Shown here: one piece after another, positions 1 through 5,524 of the stretch | Layout: the number at the start of each line of letters is the position of its first letter | Position numbering within the stretch: position 1 is the first letter of the stretch | Virus genome (UHGV): UHGV-1346966 | Reading direction: 5' to 3' (one strand) | DNA: 5,524 bases | Source of the DNA: a virus | Position numbers and translations under genes: made by a program | Notes under the pieces: model-generated | Seen by the model: only the letters and a program-made list of their open reading frames with translations | Databases searched by the model: none | What the model was told of the DNA's origin: nothing

Positions 1-181
1 TTGCTGGATCTGTCTCCGATTCCTCCTCTTTTGTAGGTTTTAGTATTTTGTTTCTTGTCAGGATGTCTTCTATCCTTCTGATTGCAAATTCTGTTTCCCA
101 TATTTCACGAATTAGTTTTTCTTTCTTTATGATTAAGTCTGCATATCCTTTACATATTTCCCTTTTTTCTCTTTCCGTCAT
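1..181 (-). CDS. Hypothetical protein, 3'-truncated at the window start. The ATG at 181..179 overlaps the last 10 codons of the Rep gene in the +1 frame. At least 60 codons are open down to position 2, and the product is a charged, helical-looking K/E/R-rich peptide (MTEREKREICKGYADLIIKKEKLIREIWETEFAIRRIEDILTRNKILKPTKEEESETDPA...). It sits where gokushovirus VP5 would be, downstream of VP4.
   Basis: Hand translation of the minus strand. An in-frame stop lies upstream at 208..206, the first ATG is at 181..179, and no stop follows through position 2. The ORF track omits it because there is no in-window stop. It is on the same strand as all the phage genes and is purine-rich in the same way. Confidence 0.3.
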   Translation of the reverse strand, partial: MTEREKREICKGYADLIIKKEKLIREIWETEFAIRRIEDILTRNKILKPTKEEESETDPA

Positions 182-1025
182 ATTTTTTGATTGATTGCCA
201 ATATTTTACTGCGTTTACATACTCCCTGTATTGCTCTATTGTTTCTACTTTGATGGGAGTTTTGTTGTAGTACTTTACTTGTTTTTCCTCCTTTATGATT
301 CGGAGGGCTTCGCGTTCCTGAACTGTCCATAATTTTTGTTTGTAGTACGTTGGTAGTGCGATTTTTATGCCTGAGTCTGTTCTGTACGTTTCTTCTGTAA
401 ATCTATCCTGGTATCTATGCCTTCTAAGTGAGTTCTCGCCTATGTATTCTTTTCCGATTCCTTTTGAAGTGAATATCTTCCCGTTGAACTCAGGATTGGC
501 CTCGTCTCTCTTCGTTACATATTTTACGATGTAGTTTATTGTTTTCTCGTTTACTTCATGCCCAAAGAATATCCAGCCGTACCCCCATTCTTTTTCGAAT
601 TGCTCCTCTGTTAGTTCTGTCCATATGAGGCCGTGCAGATGTATTCTTTTGGTATTGTCATGTCCCATTTCTGTGATCAGCCAGTGCTTGAGTGGTTTTT
701 CGTACTTTTTCCACCATCGCTTTCTGAATAGGCTGATCGCCCTTTGAGCTGCTTTGTTCGGTTCTTTTTCTTCATATTCTAGCTTTTTTAGGCTTTCTTC
801 AGAGAATGTCAGCGTTGCAAATATAATGTTTTTTGGATCTGATTTTATTTCTTCCATTAATCTTACTCTCCATTCATTTGCTTTTGCGCGTCTGCATTCT
901 TCGCAGTGTCCGCATGGAATTTGTATCCATCTTAGACGTCGGTCTTTTATTCCTTTACTGTTTTCGTTCGATTTGGCGTATCTTGGATTCTCGATGATAC
1001 TTGGATATAGGCACACTGTTTTCAA
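150..1025 (-). CDS. VP4: Microviridae replication initiation protein (VP4 / gpA-like HUH rolling-circle endonuclease)
   Basis: 291 aa. An N-terminal Cys cluster CGHCEEC with an upstream Cys (MKTVCLYP...) suggests a Zn-finger-like region. HUH motif IHLHGLIW. Tandem-tyrosine catalytic motif YIVKYVTK, compare phiX174 gpA YVAKYVNK. Size and position (after VP2) fit Microviridae Rep. The AAGGGGG 10 nt upstream of the ATG is the only SD-like element in the window. Confidence 0.85.
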   Translation of the reverse strand: MKTVCLYPSIIENPRYAKSNENSKGIKDRRLRWIQIPCGHCEECRRAKANEWRVRLMEEIKSDPKNIIFATLTFSEESLKKLEYEEKEPNKAAQRAISLFRKRWWKKYEKPLKHWLITEMGHDNTKRIHLHGLIWTELTEEQFEKEWGYGWIFFGHEVNEKTINYIVKYVTKRDEANPEFNGKIFTSKGIGKEYIGENSLRRHRYQDRFTEETYRTDSGIKIALPTYYKQKLWTVQEREALRIIKEEKQVKYYNKTPIKVETIEQYREYVNAVKYWQSIKKYDGKRKKGNM

Positions 1026-1055
1026 TTGAATTTTGCCCCCTTAAAATCATTTTTA

Positions 1056-2264
1056 CTACCATTTTGTTGTTACGGTCTTGTCCACTCCTTTAAATTTCAT
1101 TTCTGGATCATAGTGCTGCGTTACTGTTGATGAGTTCATGGGGGGAGTATTGTTCATCTTTTTTTCTGTGTATTCTCTGATCGCTTTTCCTGTTTTTCCT
1201 CCGATCACCATATTTCCTACTACTTGCGCGAGTTTGAGGATCGTGTTTGCTATTTCGGTCCAGTATTGGAGTTCTCGCAGGTCTGCGGTTGCTTCTTCGG
1301 TTCTTCTTTTTGCTTCGGCCACTTTCGCTTCTGCTTCTTGATTTCTGCCTGCTGCGTAAAAATATGCAGCTTGAGCCATTGCGCTGCATGCGTCCGCGTT
1401 TATTTTGTTGATTTCTGCCGATAGTTTTTCGTCTGCGTATATGCTCTCCAGAGTTTTGATCGCTGCTGTTCCTTCGAGGATTTGTTTTTCGGCTTTCATC
1501 ATATCGCCCTGGAATGATTCTTCTCCGAATACGATTTTACCGAATTTATCATCCTCTATTTCGAAGTATTTAGGTATTTCAATTTCTTTGCCGTCGATCG
1601 TTGTTTTTTCTGTGGGCTGCCATTTTACCATCTGGTCCCACAGCTGGTTTGCTGTGTTGATAAAGCCTTTCCAGCCTTCGAACATTTCTTGTTTTATCTG
1701 CCATATTCTTTTTTCGATTATTGTTGTGGTTTCCTCCCTGTTCTTGCTTGCCTCTGCTTCGAGTGCTTTTGCCTGTGTGTTGATCAGGTTTATCTCTGCT
1801 TCATTCTTCCGTTCATTCATTCGTACTTGTCGCAAGGACATCAGTGCCTGCAGTTGCATGTTCGGATCGGCCGCTGCTCCTGCGCCGGTCGCTCCTGTTG
1901 CTCCCATCGGAGCGCCTGTTGTTGATCCGGCTCCTCCGCCTCCGGCACCTCCCTTGCCGTACATCAGGCCGGGAGATAGTCCCGCTGCATCCATTTGTGC
2001 TACTTGGTTGGCATAGCTTTGGTCTTGGTAGGTTCTGTTGTATAATACCTGCTGCCTTTCGAACGCATTCTCCGCTGCCATTTCTCCGTATTTGTAATTT
2101 ATTTTGGCTGCGTTTTCCACCATCTCTTTCTGCTGCCTTATCTGTTTCCTCCTGCCTATGCCCAGCATGTTGAGAATTCCCGATGCGCCGCCTATTATTC
2201 CCGAGAGAGGGTTTGCGATGCCTTCTCCTTTTTCGAGTAATTTCAATAGATCTTCGAAGTTCAT
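1056..2264 (-). CDS. VP2: Microviridae minor capsid / DNA pilot protein (VP2, functional analogue of phiX174 H)
   Basis: 402 aa. It has the AAGLSPGLMYG motif that recurs in gokushovirus VP2 proteins. A Gly/Ala/Thr-rich low-complexity segment (GKGGAGGGGAGSTTGAPMGATGATGAGAAADP) is followed by a long predicted coiled coil (NERKNEAEINLINTQAKALEAEASKNREETTTIIEKRIWQIKQEM...), the same architecture as pilot protein H. It lies immediately downstream of VP1 and the small ORF, and upstream of Rep. Confidence 0.7.
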   Translation of the reverse strand: MNFEDLLKLLEKGEGIANPLSGIIGGASGILNMLGIGRRKQIRQQKEMVENAAKINYKYGEMAAENAFERQQVLYNRTYQDQSYANQVAQMDAAGLSPGLMYGKGGAGGGGAGSTTGAPMGATGATGAGAAADPNMQLQALMSLRQVRMNERKNEAEINLINTQAKALEAEASKNREETTTIIEKRIWQIKQEMFEGWKGFINTANQLWDQMVKWQPTEKTTIDGKEIEIPKYFEIEDDKFGKIVFGEESFQGDMMKAEKQILEGTAAIKTLESIYADEKLSAEINKINADACSAMAQAAYFYAAGRNQEAEAKVAEAKRRTEEATADLRELQYWTEIANTILKLAQVVGNMVIGGKTGKAIREYTEKKMNNTPPMNSSTVTQHYDPEMKFKGVDKTVTTKW

Positions 2265-2420
2265 TTTCGTTCTTTTTTTTAAAAGAATTTATACAATTGT
2301 TCTTGTTATATATGTATAAACGTCTACCGTTCTGTGCCACACGCATTTGCGAGGGTTAAAAGAGGGGGGGCGGCATCGACCCCCCTCTTTGATTTTTTGG
2401 TTGATCTTTATACGACTGCT
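2265..2420 (-). promoter_or_regulatory. Largest non-coding region in the phage block (156 nt). It contains a GC hairpin plus an AT-rich stretch (TATACATATATAACAAGAACAATTGTATAAATTC on the coding strand) and an A8 run just before the VP2 ATG. It is a candidate VP2/VP4 promoter and/or replication-origin region.
   Basis: No credible ORF on the coding strand. Only a 16-codon ATG ORF and a basic alternative-frame ORF (1813..2346) start here. Composition shifts sharply from an AT-rich background to a GC-only hairpin. No clean Bacteroides -7 TAnnTTTG or sigma70 -10/-35 element could be identified by eye. Confidence 0.3.
2359..2399. terminator. Perfect 11-bp GC-rich inverted repeat (AAAGAGGGGGG / CCCCCCTCTTT) with a 10-nt loop that can add 2 more bp. 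On the + strand it is followed by TTTGATTTTTT, and on the coding (minus) strand by a UCUUUU-type tract. It is a bidirectional intrinsic-terminator-like hairpin between the small post-VP1 ORF and VP2.
   Basis: Read directly: 2359-2369 aaagagggggg, loop gcggcatcga (c2371:g2378 and g2372:c2377 can pair), 2380-2390 cccccctcttt, then 2391-2400 gattttttgg. It is the only strongly GC stretch in an otherwise ~38% GC window. Confidence 0.5.
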
Positions 2421-2744
2421 TTAGCTTTTTTCGGGATCGGTTTTTACTTCTGTCCCGAAATCTTTTACAGCCTCGGTTTCACCTTTGCTTTTTGCTACTT
2501 GGCTTGCTTCGCTCTGGTTGATTTTATCCATCGCGTCTATTGCCACCTCAAAGCGGTCTGTGCGGATATCGTATTCTGGCAGCACACCGTCTTTTTTTTC
2601 TGTGTAGATTGTTGGGAATACTCCGTCTTCCATGCTGCTGGATTCTCCGTTGATTATTTTTCTCAGTTTCACCTCCCTTGGTTCTGCTTGGTATGTGAGG
2701 TTTGGATTGTTGATGCATCCTCTTCTGTTTGTTGCTGTTTTCAT
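2421..2744 (-). CDS. Small acidic hypothetical protein (107 aa) between VP1 and VP2. It may be an internal-scaffolding (VP3 / phiX174 B-like) protein.
   Basis: The ATG lies 4 nt after the VP1 stop (TAACACCATG), with the same strand and codon bias as its neighbours. The acidic C-terminal tail (EASQVAKSKGETEAVKDFGTEVKTDPEKS) is scaffold-like. The segment IYTEKKDGVLPEYDIRTDRFEV weakly resembles, from memory only, the conserved aromatic/acidic C-terminal coat-binding region of phiX174 protein B. The functional call rests on position only. Confidence 0.45.
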   Translation of the reverse strand: MKTATNRRGCINNPNLTYQAEPREVKLRKIINGESSSMEDGVFPTIYTEKKDGVLPEYDIRTDRFEVAIDAMDKINQSEASQVAKSKGETEAVKDFGTEVKTDPEKS

Positions 2745-2748
2745 GGTG

Positions 2749-4794
2749 TTATAAATTTGGAATTTGTTTTGCTGACATTACTCGGCGCGCTGTTACGTCG
2801 AATGCTACTTGTACCCAGAAGTTCTGTGAACTCAGTCTTGACTCTGCGAATATGTTGTTGTATATCGTAGGATCAATGTAAGTTGATGCGTTGTTGATTG
2901 TGTGATCAGAGTTTTCTTCGTACACTCTGTTCAAGCACATGAATGCTAATGGCATTCCTGCGGCGAATTCGCCGTATGTTTCGTTTACGTCTGTTGTGTA
3001 TTCGATCCATGATGGCTGTTTTCCTAATGACTGATATTTGAGTTCATGGTCCTCGATGGCTTCTGTACTCCACGCTGCTGCTTCTTCTGCGATCAGCTCC
3101 TGGAACCCGATTGCGTCTAATGTTGGCTTGTGGAAGTCATCCATGTTCTGTAGTCTTGTCCACCATTTGTTGCCTTGGCTGTAATCGATTCGAGGTGTGA
3201 TCGATCCCAAGGCCATAATCATGCTGGGTTCTGTACATTTGATTTTCAAGCCCCTTCCGGATTTGTACATGGTTGCAACTCCTCGTCCGGCAAGTGTTCC
3301 CAGTGGTTCTTCTTCTGTTGCTGAGTTTGATACGATTTCATCGAATGCAATTTCGCTCTGCATTCCGCCGCAGAATATAGGTGATTCAGGCAGCATTGCG
3401 CTTCTGATTCCGTATGTCGCTTCTCTCCATGCTTGATAGGTGCCGTCTGTGATGGCTACGCGGTTGAGCATGTTGAAAATCTTCTTCTGGAGGATCAGAG
3501 CATCCATCGTAAGTTTGCCATCGCTTACATCTACAGCTGTGATTGAATTAATTCCACCTGTTGTTCCATCGATCCATTCGGTATTCAGCCAGTTGTTGAA
3601 TCTGTCGCTGAGGTATGTTTTTACCGCCAACCCTGCTTGTGAGTACCATGCGTTTGAACTGTTATATTTTTCTCTGCGGTCATAGCTTGGTAGTCCTATA
3701 GTTTTTGTTGCGGCTCCGTATGGCATTGTAGCGCCTTCTACTATATATGCTGAGGTACTGGGTGCAGCTAAGATTTTATTTCGTTCTTCGTCGATGTTTT
3801 TTAATGGAAATGGTGTTAATTTGATTTTTTTGTTGTCCGGCATTGTCAAGTAGTTATTCCCTGCTATGTTTAGATTGTATGCAATGTTGATTGGCTTCTT
3901 GACTTGGTACACGTAAATGTTGGTCGCCTTTTTCGGGTTATCTGGTTTTTTGATTCCCATCGCTTCCGGATCTGTTCGCTCGAATATAAAGGCGTCTCCG
4001 AGTTTTGTTAGTTTGTTAATTTTTTGTGTAGGTTTTTCCGGATCATTCGTTAAGAATTGTATTTCATTGACTTCTTCAGGTGATATTTTTTCCTCGAATT
4101 CCAGTTTGATAAAACTCGGTGCTTGACTTGATGGATTGAGTGGGTATGCTTCACTTAAGTTTTCTGTCCACTCTCTATTCCAAGCAACTCCATCTCCTGC
4201 AGAGATTTTCTTCCAAATATGGTTTATTCCGGTGATTACGTATGCGTTTTCTTCTTGCTTGTTGGCGTAATAGTTTTTGAATATGTCCCAGTATGCCAGA
4301 TTGAATATTGCAGGAAAGGTTCGAATGTGGCTGTTAGTTTTGGAGTGTCCGAATCCTTTTATTCCTAAGTATGAGAGCAGCGAACTCGGATTTACTTGCC
4401 CTCTGTTGGTATCGTTTTCATAGATTGATGTGATAGCTGTGCTGACCCTGAATTGTGGCAGCAGTACCTTGCTCATGTTCAACCCTACTCCCAGGGCATT
4501 ATTATGCAGTGCTGCTATGTAGAGCCTGATCGGAATTACAAACACATCGATTTGATGTTTGAAGCTTCCGAATACAGGCCCGGTTGTTGGCAGGGTTTTT
4601 ACCTTCGTTGTGATGTCGACGTAGAACGTCGTTCCATCCAAACCTATCTGACACCAATAGGGAACGATCGTGCCGCATGCCTGTGATGTTCGGATTATCT
4701 TTCCCACGTTGTGAGATGATCTGCCGAAATTAGGCAGATATACTTCCATTTTGCTTTCGCTTCGGAGTCTGTCTCCTCCCAATGTTTTTTTCAT
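2749..4794 (-). CDS. VP1: Microviridae major capsid protein (VP1 / F-protein jelly-roll family)
   Basis: 681 aa. The N-terminal region (...FGRSSHNVGKIIRTSQACGTIVPYWCQIGLDGTTFYVDI...VFVIPIRLY) matches the conserved start of gokushovirus VP1 (R-S-x-F...G-x-L-x-P...PGDTF...FFVP-RL). The C-terminus ...FWVQVAFDVTARRVMSAKQIPNL is typical. It is the largest ORF, and its length fits the Alpavirinae-type VP1 with large insertion loops. Alternative start at the second Met (MEVYLPNFGR..., 15 codons in). Confidence 0.85.
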   Translation of the reverse strand: MKKTLGGDRLRSESKMEVYLPNFGRSSHNVGKIIRTSQACGTIVPYWCQIGLDGTTFYVDITTKVKTLPTTGPVFGSFKHQIDVFVIPIRLYIAALHNNALGVGLNMSKVLLPQFRVSTAITSIYENDTNRGQVNPSSLLSYLGIKGFGHSKTNSHIRTFPAIFNLAYWDIFKNYYANKQEENAYVITGINHIWKKISAGDGVAWNREWTENLSEAYPLNPSSQAPSFIKLEFEEKISPEEVNEIQFLTNDPEKPTQKINKLTKLGDAFIFERTDPEAMGIKKPDNPKKATNIYVYQVKKPINIAYNLNIAGNNYLTMPDNKKIKLTPFPLKNIDEERNKILAAPSTSAYIVEGATMPYGAATKTIGLPSYDRREKYNSSNAWYSQAGLAVKTYLSDRFNNWLNTEWIDGTTGGINSITAVDVSDGKLTMDALILQKKIFNMLNRVAITDGTYQAWREATYGIRSAMLPESPIFCGGMQSEIAFDEIVSNSATEEEPLGTLAGRGVATMYKSGRGLKIKCTEPSMIMALGSITPRIDYSQGNKWWTRLQNMDDFHKPTLDAIGFQELIAEEAAAWSTEAIEDHELKYQSLGKQPSWIEYTTDVNETYGEFAAGMPLAFMCLNRVYEENSDHTINNASTYIDPTIYNNIFAESRLSSQNFWVQVAFDVTARRVMSAKQIPNL

Positions 4795-4797
4795 GGT

Positions 4798-5103
4798 TTA
4801 TTCTTTTTGAGTGTTTTCCATTTGGTTTTTTACGTGTGTGAAGAATATGAGTGTTGCGGTTAGGATGTCCTCCCACTTTTTTTGAGCCAGATGTTCTTCG
4901 GCATCTTCTTTAGTGTCGAACTCTTTCCCGTTTACGAGTGCACCGCATGTTGTGATCACCCATTTGTTCTTCTTGTTGCGGATCAGTACGAACGGGCCGT
5001 TTTTCGATGCTTCTCTTTTTTCGATTTCGAGGTTTACATTTTCGATTTCTTTTTCTTTTTTTCTGCTTTCAGTAAGCAGCTGATCTCTGAATTTCTTTTC
5101 CAT
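4798..5103 (-). CDS. Hypothetical protein (101 aa) immediately upstream of VP1. It has a charged coiled N-terminus and a compact C-terminal half (PFVLIRNKKNKWVITTCGALVNGKEFDTKEDAEEHLAQKKWEDIL).
   Basis: The stop is TAA at 4800..4798 and the VP1 ATG is at 4794. Its ATG at 5103 is 1 nt after the stop of the preceding TM ORF (TAAcATG), so it appears translationally coupled within the capsid operon. No confident family assignment. The W-x-x-x-x-x-G-x-L-x-NGKEF-x-TKE-x-AE pattern vaguely resembles DUF1508/YegP-like small beta-alpha domains (unverified). Confidence 0.5.
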   Translation of the reverse strand: MEKKFRDQLLTESRKKEKEIENVNLEIEKREASKNGPFVLIRNKKNKWVITTCGALVNGKEFDTKEDAEEHLAQKKWEDILTATLIFFTHVKNQMENTQKE

Positions 5104-5104
5104 G

Positions 5105-5275
5105 TTATTTGATTTTTATTGTTTTTGACACTTCGATTGTGTCGATTTTGACGCCGTTTGCTTTGAGATGGTACTTGTTGGTGCATCCCTGTTCCATGAT
5201 TACAGCAGCTGCAGCGCCGATCGCTGCTGCTATCACCGCGATCCATTTTACGATTTTCTTTACTTTTTCATTCAT
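5105..5275 (-). CDS. Small membrane protein, 56 aa (MNEKVKKIVKWIAVIAAAIGAAAAVIMEQGCTNKYHLKANGVKIDTIEVSKTIKIK). It has a basic n-region, a ~20-residue Ala/Ile-rich hydrophobic helix and a short basic C-terminal tail. It is not in the supplied ORF track because it is under 60 aa.
   Basis: Hand translation. The ATG at 5275..5273 overlaps the TGA of the upstream ORF (ATGA). The TAA is at 5107..5105, 1 nt before the next ATG. The frame is the one that yields a protein-like sequence; the competing 70-aa frame at 5034..5246 is Ser/Arg/Lys low complexity. EQGC is a poor lipobox, so an N-terminal signal-anchor is more likely than a lipoprotein. Confidence 0.45.
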   Translation of the reverse strand: MNEKVKKIVKWIAVIAAAIGAAAAVIMEQGCTNKYHLKANGVKIDTIEVSKTIKIK

Positions 5276-5524
5276 AGGTCTAATGATTGTTGAGTTTCTC
5301 TGATTTTGATTATTACTATTCTTCTGATGATAGGTTCGTATATTTCTTTTTCTTTGTTGTATCTCCAGTTGCTCACTTCGTAGAATGGAATGCCGATTCT
5401 TTGTGGTTTATGAGCATCTACATATTTATCATCATATGTTTCTCCATCTTCTGTTACGTAGTATGTTCCTTCGTATCCAAATTCTTGTCGAATTACTCTT
5501 CCTACGCCGATCAGTTTTGTGAGG
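5272..5524 (-). CDS. Hypothetical protein, 5'-truncated at the window end. The C-terminal 83 aa are ...LTKLIGVGRVIRQEFGYEGTYYVTEDGETYDDKYVDAHKPQRIGIPFYEVSNWRYNKEKEIYEPIIRRIVIIKIRETQQSLDL.
   Basis: The frame is open from 5523 down to the TGA at 5274..5272. It is on the same strand as all phage genes and is translationally coupled (ATGA) to the TM ORF. The ORF track omits it because there is no in-window Met. No family recognised. Confidence 0.4.
   Translation of the reverse strand, partial: LTKLIGVGRVIRQEFGYEGTYYVTEDGETYDDKYVDAHKPQRIGIPFYEVSNWRYNKEKEIYEPIIRRIVIIKIRETQQSLDL

Follow-up and report, generated by a model that had tools for sequence, protein, structure and literature searches.

A probable complete genome unit of a circular single-stranded DNA microvirus from a gut-associated clade with integrated relatives in Bacteroidales

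Introduction

Microviruses associated with Bacteroidales, of the kind called Alpavirinae-like, have been described since 2011-2012. In the Alpavirinae proviruses of Bacteroides and Prevotella, BMV1-7, only VP1, VP2 and VP4 are recognisable, VP1 is enlarged, a conserved small open reading frame (ORF) is present and a recombinase gene is absent (PMC3091885, PMC3394797); dif-like integration has been described for the BMVs (PMC3091885). The DNA analysed here, UHGV virus genome UHGV-1346966 (5524 nucleotides (nt); “the window” below means this whole stretch), resembles these proviruses, by description, in these features of gene content and in its association with Bacteroidales, but the BMV genomes measure about 6.3 kb against 5.5 kb here, and neither an integrated form nor a dif-like attachment (att) site was found for the lineage of the window. 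We conclude, at a probability of about 0.92, that the window is one complete unit, arbitrarily linearised, of the circular single-stranded DNA (ssDNA) genome of a microvirus (class Microviricetes, formerly family Microviridae), belonging to a gut-associated clade that has integrated relatives in Bacteroidales.

Three other viruses provide points of comparison. Bacteroides phage phiHBP1 (PV598014), the first cultured Bacteroidota microvirus, was assigned to Gokushovirinae by the paper describing it (PMC13064476). This gut phage of Bacteroides fragilis shares with the window a VP1, small ORF, VP2 ... VP4 layout but is of a different clade; its VP1 is 22% identical, in the C-terminal part only, and its 6319-nt genome encodes an M15 peptidase, of which there is none in the window. 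Every ORF but VP1 is annotated as hypothetical in its GenBank record. Tortoise microvirus 7 (MK765557; Algophervirus faecalis, Lilleviridae, of the international committee for virus taxonomy (ICTV)) has 5554 nt and a similar succession of VP1, small ORF and VP2, but its VP1 matches that of the window at 27% over 135 residues and its small ORF is unlike o107, the ORF that follows VP1 here. In the rows of Table S1 of Kirchberger et al. that cover Families 1 and 10-19 it appears in Family 18, with Alistipes listed as host (PMC9239249). Finally, phiX174 (Bullavirinae) is like the window in having all its genes on one strand, overlapping genes, a HUH Rep with two catalytic tyrosines, an F-type capsid protein and an H-type pilot protein, but no pairwise similarity between the VP1 proteins is detectable and the window has no homologues of D, G, J, C or E. 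The phiX174 origin is AT-rich, which invites analogy with a conserved box in the window, but it is located within gene A, while the one proposed here falls between genes.

Much closer genomes are already public. The nearest, IMG/VR UViG_3300030365_000010, is 94.7% identical in nucleotides genome-wide and has the same 8 ORFs. In the databases, over 120 clusters are 92-97% identical to VP1; their contigs measure about 5.55 kb and come from Logan, ENA, JGI and NCBI. One cluster has 594 members and is represented by the GenBank Third Party Annotation (TPA) entry DAV18053.1, “MAG TPA: Major capsid protein [Microviridae sp.]”, and two further TPA capsids, DAT07891.1 and DAT67445.1, belong to the same species complex. 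Genomes of this complex from human and animal guts have units of 5522-5535 nt, like the window, and differ from it in the hypervariable gene j117 and the C-terminus of VP4. Since the nearest genome is 94.7% identical and the exact VP1 is not on record, the window is, judged by these comparisons, another strain of a heavily sampled, uncultivated gut microvirus. The closest annotated GenBank genomes are bajarodmic virus 724 (PQ006946, rodent faeces) and Microviridae sp. MG945452 (civet faeces), in which VP1 is 56%, VP4 48-50%, o107 47-52% and o101 35-45% identical to the proteins of the window; gene order, intergenic hairpin and box are the same, but no homologue of j64, j117 or o56 is detectable in them and other small ORFs occupy that segment.

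The species complex being public as hundreds of near-identical genomes, the window carries little weight as a discovery. It is useful as a reference for one of the commonest gut microvirus lineages, being a clean and complete unit, to which are added a corrected Rep start, two junction genes missed by linear annotation, the core gene o107 and a testable candidate origin and terminator. These additions would be helpful for the synthetic resurrection of such phages or for the annotation of gut viromes.

The window as a genome unit

Dozens of close relatives are found in IMG/VR, their contigs measuring about 5.6 kb. For 21 of these, which carry exact terminal direct overlaps, the unit length is 5522-5535 nt, and they were aligned with the 5524-nt window (5553 columns; 82.6-94.7% nt identity); comparisons of 22 genomes refer to this alignment throughout. 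The contigs of the relatives are circularly permuted with respect to the window, and in three of them (L024, L031 and L027; L numbers designate retrieved sequences) the homologue of the window's end runs straight into the homologue of its start. Because the length equals the circular unit of the 21 relatives and the ends are adjacent in permuted relatives, the window is read as a full genome unit that was cut arbitrarily. The same series of genes, including a 118-residue gene at 751-1107, is found on Logan contig L086 (5555 nt, with a 30-nt overlap), and PQ006946 is a circular genome of 5528 nt with 6 annotated genes in the order VP1, 109-residue ORF, pilot, Rep and two small ORFs. The original prediction, made from the sequence alone, had left it open whether this was a free circle or a prophage; with the circularity of this molecule deduced from the 5522-5535-nt units of its relatives, it is a free circular genome and not a prophage fragment.

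All the long ORFs are on the minus strand. The strand that codes and is packaged is complementary to the window as given and contains 40.7% A and 17.1% T. On it the order is VP4, j64 and j117 (which overlap in different frames), o56, o101, VP1, o107, a 156-nt intergenic region and VP2, leading back to VP4 (Table 1). The 8 genes are co-oriented, with VP1, VP2 and VP4 contiguous. Once j64 and j117 are counted, 96.3% of the 5524-nt genome is coding, the gaps other than 2265-2420 are at most 39 nt, and no host gene lies within the window. The prediction had described positions 150-5275 as the complete core of a Microviridae genome, with VP1, a small ORF, VP2 and VP4 on one strand. Those genes are all present where it placed them, and all on the minus strand, but it is the whole 5524 nt that makes up one genome unit, and two more genes cross its ends. 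It had also seen that no VP3 stands between VP2 and VP4, and there is indeed no ORF there, where Chp2 and phiMH2K carry VP3.

The reported near-absence of Shine-Dalgarno sequences was likewise found, in that no GGAGG-like motif occurs 5-12 nt upstream of any start; an AAGGGGG near VP4 is 19 nt from the conserved VP4 start. A lack of Shine-Dalgarno motifs fits Bacteroidota-type translation initiation. The window gave no match in Rfam, and a sigma-70 promoter scan was not above shuffle expectation.

Table 1. Features of the window, and candidate att repeats flanking integrated relatives
Feature	Position	Strand	Description	Basis
VP4	150..1016	-	HUH rolling-circle replication initiator, most likely 288 residues from GTG at 1016	Pfam, PHROG, motifs, start-codon comparison
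VP2	1056..2264	-	DNA pilot protein, 402 residues, Gly-rich low-complexity segment	PHROG pilot families
Intergenic region	2265..2420	-	Sole sizeable intergenic region, 156 nt; proposed regulatory and origin region	Most conserved non-coding stretch in the 22-genome alignment
Box	2300..2329	-	30-nt box CGGTAGACGTTTATACATATATAACAAGAA, invariant; candidate site of recognition and nicking by Rep	Cross-genome conservation
Hairpin	2359..2390	-	Terminator-like GC-rich hairpin AAAGAGGGGGG / CCCCCCCTCTTT followed by T-run; lies after VP1-o107	DNA fold -13.1 kcal/mol, z -5.3
o107	2421..2744	-	Clade-specific fourth core protein, 107 residues, motif DIRTDRFExA	Conserved homologues directly after VP1
VP1	2749..4794	-	Major capsid protein, 681 residues, F-like jelly roll with large insertions	Pfam, PHROG, PDB, tblastn matches
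o101	4798..5103	-	Conserved protein of 101 residues immediately upstream of VP1	Conservation
o56	5105..5275	-	Candidate membrane or lysis protein, 56 residues	Basic N-terminus, 18-residue hydrophobic segment, then Cys
j117	101..1 then 5524..5272	-	ATG at 101-99, stop at 5274-5272; overlaps j64 in the -1 frame	
j64	181..1 then 5524..5511	-	ATG at 181-179, stop on the far side of the junction (5511-5524); overlaps last VP4 codons	
Candidate att, Dysgonomonas macrotermitis	L075 8675-8694 and 14732-14751		AATGGTAATTATATAACAAA, 20 nt	Span 6057 nt
Candidate att, Dysgonomonas sp. 521	L073 2669-2681 and 8671-8683		TAATAGTAATTAT, 13 nt	Span 6002 nt
Candidate att, Phocaeicola metagenome-assembled genome	L074 3041-3059 and 9113-9131		Palindromic GTATTCGCGCCGAATACAG, 19 nt	Span 6072 nt

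Capsid, pilot and replication proteins

VP1 is recognised by Pfam Phage_F (43.1 bits against a cut-off of 25; E 3.4e-11), PHROG 514 major head protein (7e-41) and the microvirus capsid PDB 8DES (1e-6), the Phage_F and 8DES matches covering its C-terminal part. A tblastn search with VP1 returned 545 phage records, all of them microviruses; 103 of the matches, to annotated microvirus genomes, were full-length, with a best identity of 56%, and an exact look-up found no identical VP1 protein on record. VP1 is intact in 21-22 of the 22 genomes, and its variation is concentrated at third codon positions. VP2 has no Pfam match but is matched by 8 PHROG families of “pilot protein for DNA ejection” (best 3.7e-7); it is 25-42% identical to the annotated pilot proteins of relatives, with which it agrees in position and size, and it is intact in 22/22 genomes, with 102, 65 and 316 variable sites at the three codon positions.

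Directly after VP1 lies o107, which is intact in 21 of the 22 genomes, with 32, 27 and 87 variable sites by codon position, and which matches 2138 database proteins. A homologue immediately follows VP1 in 111 phage records, as it does in all the integrated Bacteroidales relatives, and o107 is therefore a fourth core gene of the clade. The conserved core reads E(G)ESIExK(L/V)RR...KEPI...P.IYT.(K/R)KDGV.P.YDIRTDRFExAxxAMDK. A VP3-like scaffold gene has been proposed at this position in Alpavirinae (Krupovic & Forterre, PMC3091885; Roux et al., PMC3394797). The o107 protein is probably an internal scaffold-like partner of VP1.

VP4 passes the cut-off of Pfam REP_ORF2-G2P (PF23343; 44.2 bits against 27.8), and PHROG 942 replication initiation protein is matched as well (5e-32). 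In each of the 22 genomes the following motifs are either unchanged or altered only by conservative substitutions: CG(H/Y/C)CEEC, FATLTF, the HUH motif HLHG(L/I)IW, and YI(V/I)KY(V/I)TK, in which the YxxKYxxK active site announced by the original prediction is seen throughout. The 291-residue length given there probably does not stand, as it depended on a TTG at 1025 taken from the mechanically called ORF. This codon is present in 2 of the 22 and is TTA or ATA elsewhere. Three codons downstream, at 1016, the window has GTG, the relatives have ATG (11/22) or GTG (11/22), and annotated relatives also start here. Because the start at 1016 is conserved and the TTG at 1025 is not, VP4 most likely has 288 residues. 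The prediction's assignment to Microviridae through VP1, VP2 and VP4 is upheld by Pfam, PHROG, PDB and tblastn matches far beyond chance, and in Pfam searches, of the kind that it had suggested as a check, the 681- and 291-residue proteins passed the thresholds of Phage_F and REP_ORF2-G2P.

The C-terminus of VP4 (minus strand, window 150-190) comes in three variants among the 22 close genomes, ending in ...KKYDGKRKKGNM, 3 residues shorter or 15 residues longer; this variation results from changes around the start of the overlapping gene j64.

Phylogenetic position

A VP1 phylogeny, another of the checks suggested, was built by neighbour joining (516 columns, 100 bootstraps), with exemplars of the order Alpavirales from 2 of its 5 families, Lilleviridae and Litenviridae; the order is taken in the sense of NCBI's 2026 taxonomy dump. 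One clade (100/100) unites the window with its relatives and the Bacteroidales proviruses, set apart from a second clade of Chp2, phiMH2K and SpV4 (100/100). The window clade joins Tortoise microvirus 7, an ICTV exemplar of Alpavirales, at 90/100. phiHBP1 pairs with Tortoise microvirus 56 (Litenviridae, Alpavirales) at 100/100, and a single group of these two with the window clade has 14/100.

Four features of Microviridae in the wide sense are seen here: an F-type capsid, a HUH Rep, a pilot gene downstream of the capsid gene and a small genome, in the range of 4-7 kb, coding on one strand, its circularity being taken from the relatives. Those of classical Gokushovirinae are not, as VP1 falls outside the Chp2/phiMH2K/SpV4 clade and neither VP3 nor VP5 is recognisable. 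Features of the Alpavirinae type (as described in PMC3091885 and PMC3394797) are found in the integrated relatives in Bacteroidales and in a gene set in which only VP1, VP2 and VP4 are recognisable beside a conserved unassigned ORF. As to a dif-like att site or an integrated state, no integrated copy of the close lineage was found, and an AT-rich box that resembles the att core of Dysgonomonas elements is nevertheless internal in the proviruses.

According to Kirchberger et al. (PMC9239249), Families 4, 5 and 6 occur abundantly in the human gut and are associated with Bacteroidetes, Family 18 emerges within Family 4, and Family 5 holds the Alpavirinae including BMV1. Relatives of the window are not among the Table S1 rows of that study for Families 1 and 10-19. 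As far as those rows allow, the clade is more probably Family 4-like, or a neighbouring Family 4/18 group, than part of Family 5 (BMV1-7). Taken broadly, it is probably “Alpavirinae-like”, and the order Alpavirales as it now stands probably includes it. In the NCBI taxonomy bajarodmic virus 724, Dulem virus 222 and Tortoise microviruses 11, 13 and 19 are all unclassified. The lineage named by the original prediction therefore holds as far as it is Bacteroidetes-associated and distinct from classical gokushoviruses, given the proviruses, the 100/100 clades and the 90/100 junction with Tortoise microvirus 7. The gene order that it had also invoked does not discriminate, because the order VP4-VP1-VP2 is common to nearly all microviruses (PMC3394797).

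Integrated relatives and host range

A scan of one genome per prokaryotic species returned 7 loci. Four of these lie inside large contigs and carry a VP1-o107-VP2-VP4 module with 37-45% VP1 identity: Dysgonomonas macrotermitis (265 kb), Dysgonomonas sp. 521 (73 kb), a Phocaeicola metagenome-assembled genome (MAG; 44 kb) and a Paludibacteraceae MAG (104 kb). In three cases, direct repeats spaced about 6.0-6.07 kb from each other bracket the element and are candidate att sites (Table 1); the two Dysgonomonas repeats are similar AT-rich imperfect palindromes and may be dif-like. The presence of these relatives in Bacteroidales contigs supports a Bacteroidales host range for the clade; this virus itself may have a Bacteroidales host.

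None of about 60 close relatives that were retrieved is integrated. Two long contigs join such relatives to unrelated DNA. In L018 (IMGVR_UViG_3300007105_000184, 11646 nt) a relative is joined near 5542 to DNA with Bacteroidales-type tyrosine integrases, an ATPase and a zeta toxin, and in L027 (IMGVR_UViG_3300007801_000137, 8554 nt) one is joined near 4620 to DNA with a PAPS reductase and a tail protein Z of a double-stranded DNA (dsDNA) phage. Neither was accepted as a case of integration, or of a microvirus embedded in a dsDNA phage, since both are probably chimeras. The joins fall within VP2 in each; poly-G runs of the Gly-rich region mark the start of L018 and the point where it breaks, and the viral part of L027 is shorter than a genome unit.

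The intergenic region

In the 22 genomes the region 2265-2420 is more conserved than synonymous sites. It contains the only terminator-like site of the coding strand, a hairpin whose stem is invariant and whose loop is variable. Six distant members of the clade (L001, L002, L003, L041, L074 and L076) show another GC-rich hairpin in this position, so that it is structure rather than sequence that is conserved. The hairpin is most likely an intrinsic terminator after VP1-o107. Directly upstream of the VP2 start there are a T-run/A-run and GAACGAAA.

Also conserved is the box at 2300-2329: although the 22 genomes differ by up to 17% overall, they agree with one another at 29 of its 30 positions. 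It is found again, with 1-3 mismatches, in the same intergenic region of genomes at 46-56% VP1 identity, and the Bacteroidales proviruses have a related motif, TATAT(T/A)A(T/C)CAAG, in the loop of a 9-18-bp stem (z -2.9 to -4.0). Since its counterpart is internal to the proviruses, the box is not their att site. From this pattern of conservation it is proposed that the box is the Rep recognition and nick site, the origin of viral-strand synthesis, in which case cleavage by VP4 would fall within TATATAACAAG.

To our knowledge, a microvirus origin has been mapped only for phages of the phiX174 type, inside the Rep gene. If the proposal is true, an intergenic origin defined by sequence would be an arrangement unlike that type.

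Between hairpin and box, at 2341-2352 of the minus strand, the relatives show variation that looks paired, TCGCAAATGCGTG in some against TCATAAATACATG in others; the element could be a small stem with compensatory changes.

Genes across the window ends

Joining the ends of the window opens two minus-strand ORFs, j64 and j117, which overlap in different frames. The j64 product has 61-65 residues in 22/22 genomes, and about 50 N-terminal residues are conserved (MTEREKxEICKGYADLIIKKEKLIREIWETEF...), with conservative substitutions. The j117 frame is also open in 22/22 genomes, at 117-120 residues. Its C-terminal 85 residues or so are conserved (...YEGTYYVTEDGExYD...RTGxxFYEVxxWxYN...IRRIV...), while the N-terminal third, which overlaps j64, is poorly conserved, as expected of an overprinted region. 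The j117 ATG is nevertheless kept in all 22 genomes, because the j64 codon before a conserved Trp is always NTA (ATA, CTA or GTA), giving NTA-TGG. On permuted contigs, homologues of j117 have been called as intact genes of 117-118 residues; the databases contain 2257 such proteins, and some bear the name “MAG TPA: hypothetical protein [Microviridae sp.]”. No match to j64 or j117 was obtained by tblastn against 50,697 phage records, nor in Pfam and PHROG even at E = 10. Across the 22 genomes the conservation of all 8 ORFs, as well as of the intergenic elements, is shown.

It is tentatively proposed that the box at 2300-2329 serves as a Rep-recognised viral-strand origin for a large Bacteroidales-associated clade and, at the same time, that j64 and j117 are a genuine overprinted pair in which the j117 start is held by synonymous-codon choice in j64; that both would hold together is possible, but we lean slightly against it.

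The j117 gene (5272-5524 plus 1-101) is the most variable in the genome. About two thirds of its columns vary among the 22 genomes, at all three codon positions, and it is never interrupted, which suggests either diversifying selection or relaxed constraint.

Weighing of alternative readings

Several observations weigh against parts of the reading given above. The circularity of the window is taken from its relatives and not from its own reads or an overlap of its ends. With regard to the host, the closest integrated relatives are only 37-45% identical in VP1, and two sequences point elsewhere. The lone scaffold_75 of the Acinetobacter lwoffii strain SU1904 assembly (L071, NZ_JACWEU010000076.1, 5673 nt) is of the same lineage, with 92% identity in VP1 and 84-86% in nucleotides; the whole scaffold is viral, with neither flanking bacterial DNA nor a terminal overlap, and it is probably a contaminant or carry-over rather than evidence for an Acinetobacter host. 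A 37%-identical relative with the full four-gene module was binned with a MAG of Faecalimonas sp. (Firmicutes; L072, JAZUCE010000122.1, 8309 nt) and could be a mis-binned contig or a non-Bacteroidales integration. In that contig the viral segment, at about 1000-7500, is A-rich, and both contig ends differ from it in composition. As to the origin, the stem around the box is not significant in the window (z -0.8) or in close relatives (z -0.8 to 0), and is so only in the proviruses. The o107 protein has no detectable similarity to VP3: Pfam and PHROG gave nothing, and a 12-member o107 alignment was compared by hhalign with VP3 of phiMH2K and Chp2, with B of phiX174 and with the ORFs that follow VP1 in phiHBP1 and in Tortoise microviruses 7, 10 and 56. 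The probabilities reached at most 0.4%, with 0.2% for VP3, but the VP3 controls were equally empty, so that the test had little power. The roles proposed for the accessory genes are likewise without support from homology; the small ORFs had no match in Pfam and PHROG, and no VP3, VP5 or VP8 homologue was found.

Alternatively, the window might stem from a Bacteroidales chromosome, as all or part of a provirus integrated there in the manner of the BMV proviruses. Related elements are indeed integrated with flanking direct repeats in the two Dysgonomonas and the Phocaeicola MAG, and dif-like integration has been described for BMVs (PMC3091885), but a provirus would be hard to reconcile with a window that has no host gene, is 96% viral coding and has the length of the circular unit of 21 relatives, with ends that are adjacent in permuted relatives and split two conserved genes. 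Furthermore, the count of integrated copies is 0 among about 60 close relatives, and the only long contigs, L018 and L027, join inside VP2, the former at a poly-G run typical of chimeric assembly. We therefore consider integration of the window very unlikely. Another reading is that the virus is temperate and that the conserved AT-rich intergenic box is a dif-like XerC/D recombination site instead of a replication origin. The box is an imperfect AT-rich palindrome that shares TATATAACAA with the repeats flanking the two Dysgonomonas proviruses, and dif-like sites have been proposed for BMVs (PMC3091885). Its counterpart in the proviruses, however, lies between o107 and VP2, inside the element, with the att repeats after VP4, and among thousands of contigs none was seen to hold an integrated copy of the close lineage; a dif-like function is improbable, if less so than an integrated window. 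Least probable of all, by a small step, is that this is a classical gokushovirus of the Chlamydia, Bdellovibrio or Spiroplasma type and not a member of a Bacteroidales-associated lineage. It is true that Phage_F and 8DES match the C-terminal part of VP1, that neighbouring groups have been placed in Gokushovirinae in a broad sense (PMC13064476) and that the scheme of Kirchberger et al. unites all these families in one suborder. Against this, VP1 aligns with that of Chp2 and phiMH2K over only 123-146 residues at 26-27% identity and with that of SpV4 not at all; the gokushovirus trio is separate at 100/100, homologues of VP3, VP5 and VP8 are missing, and VP1 has 681 residues against 533-565.

Proposed life cycle

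Under the preferred reading of a free, circular microvirus of a Bacteroidales-associated clade, the following steps are suggested by analogy with phiX174 and gokushoviruses. The VP2 pilot protein would deliver the ssDNA, which the host would convert to the double-stranded replicative form. With the Tyr residues in YIVKYVTK and its metal-binding HLH motif, the HUH Rep VP4 would then nick the viral strand and drive rolling-circle replication from the box. The VP1-o107 transcript would end at the hairpin. A T=1 capsid would form from 60 copies of VP1, with o107 probably serving as their scaffold-like partner inside it, and o56, a putative small membrane protein, may act in lysis.

Other small genes

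Two further small genes separate VP1 from j117. The o101 gene is intact in 22/22 genomes, with 38, 22 and 63 variable sites by codon position, and homologues 23-45% identical to it occupy the same position in L001, L002, L003, L041 and L077. The o56 gene is also intact in 22/22 genomes (15, 8 and 37 variable sites). Its maximum Kyte-Doolittle hydropathy is 2.33, and the hydrophobic stretch is followed by ...EQGC, which resembles a lipoprotein signal. These features suggest a membrane or lysis protein, and lysis is put forward because the genome has no peptidase gene of the kind that phiHBP1 has. At the position of o56, MG945452 has an ORF of 71 residues with a transmembrane segment and a Cys.

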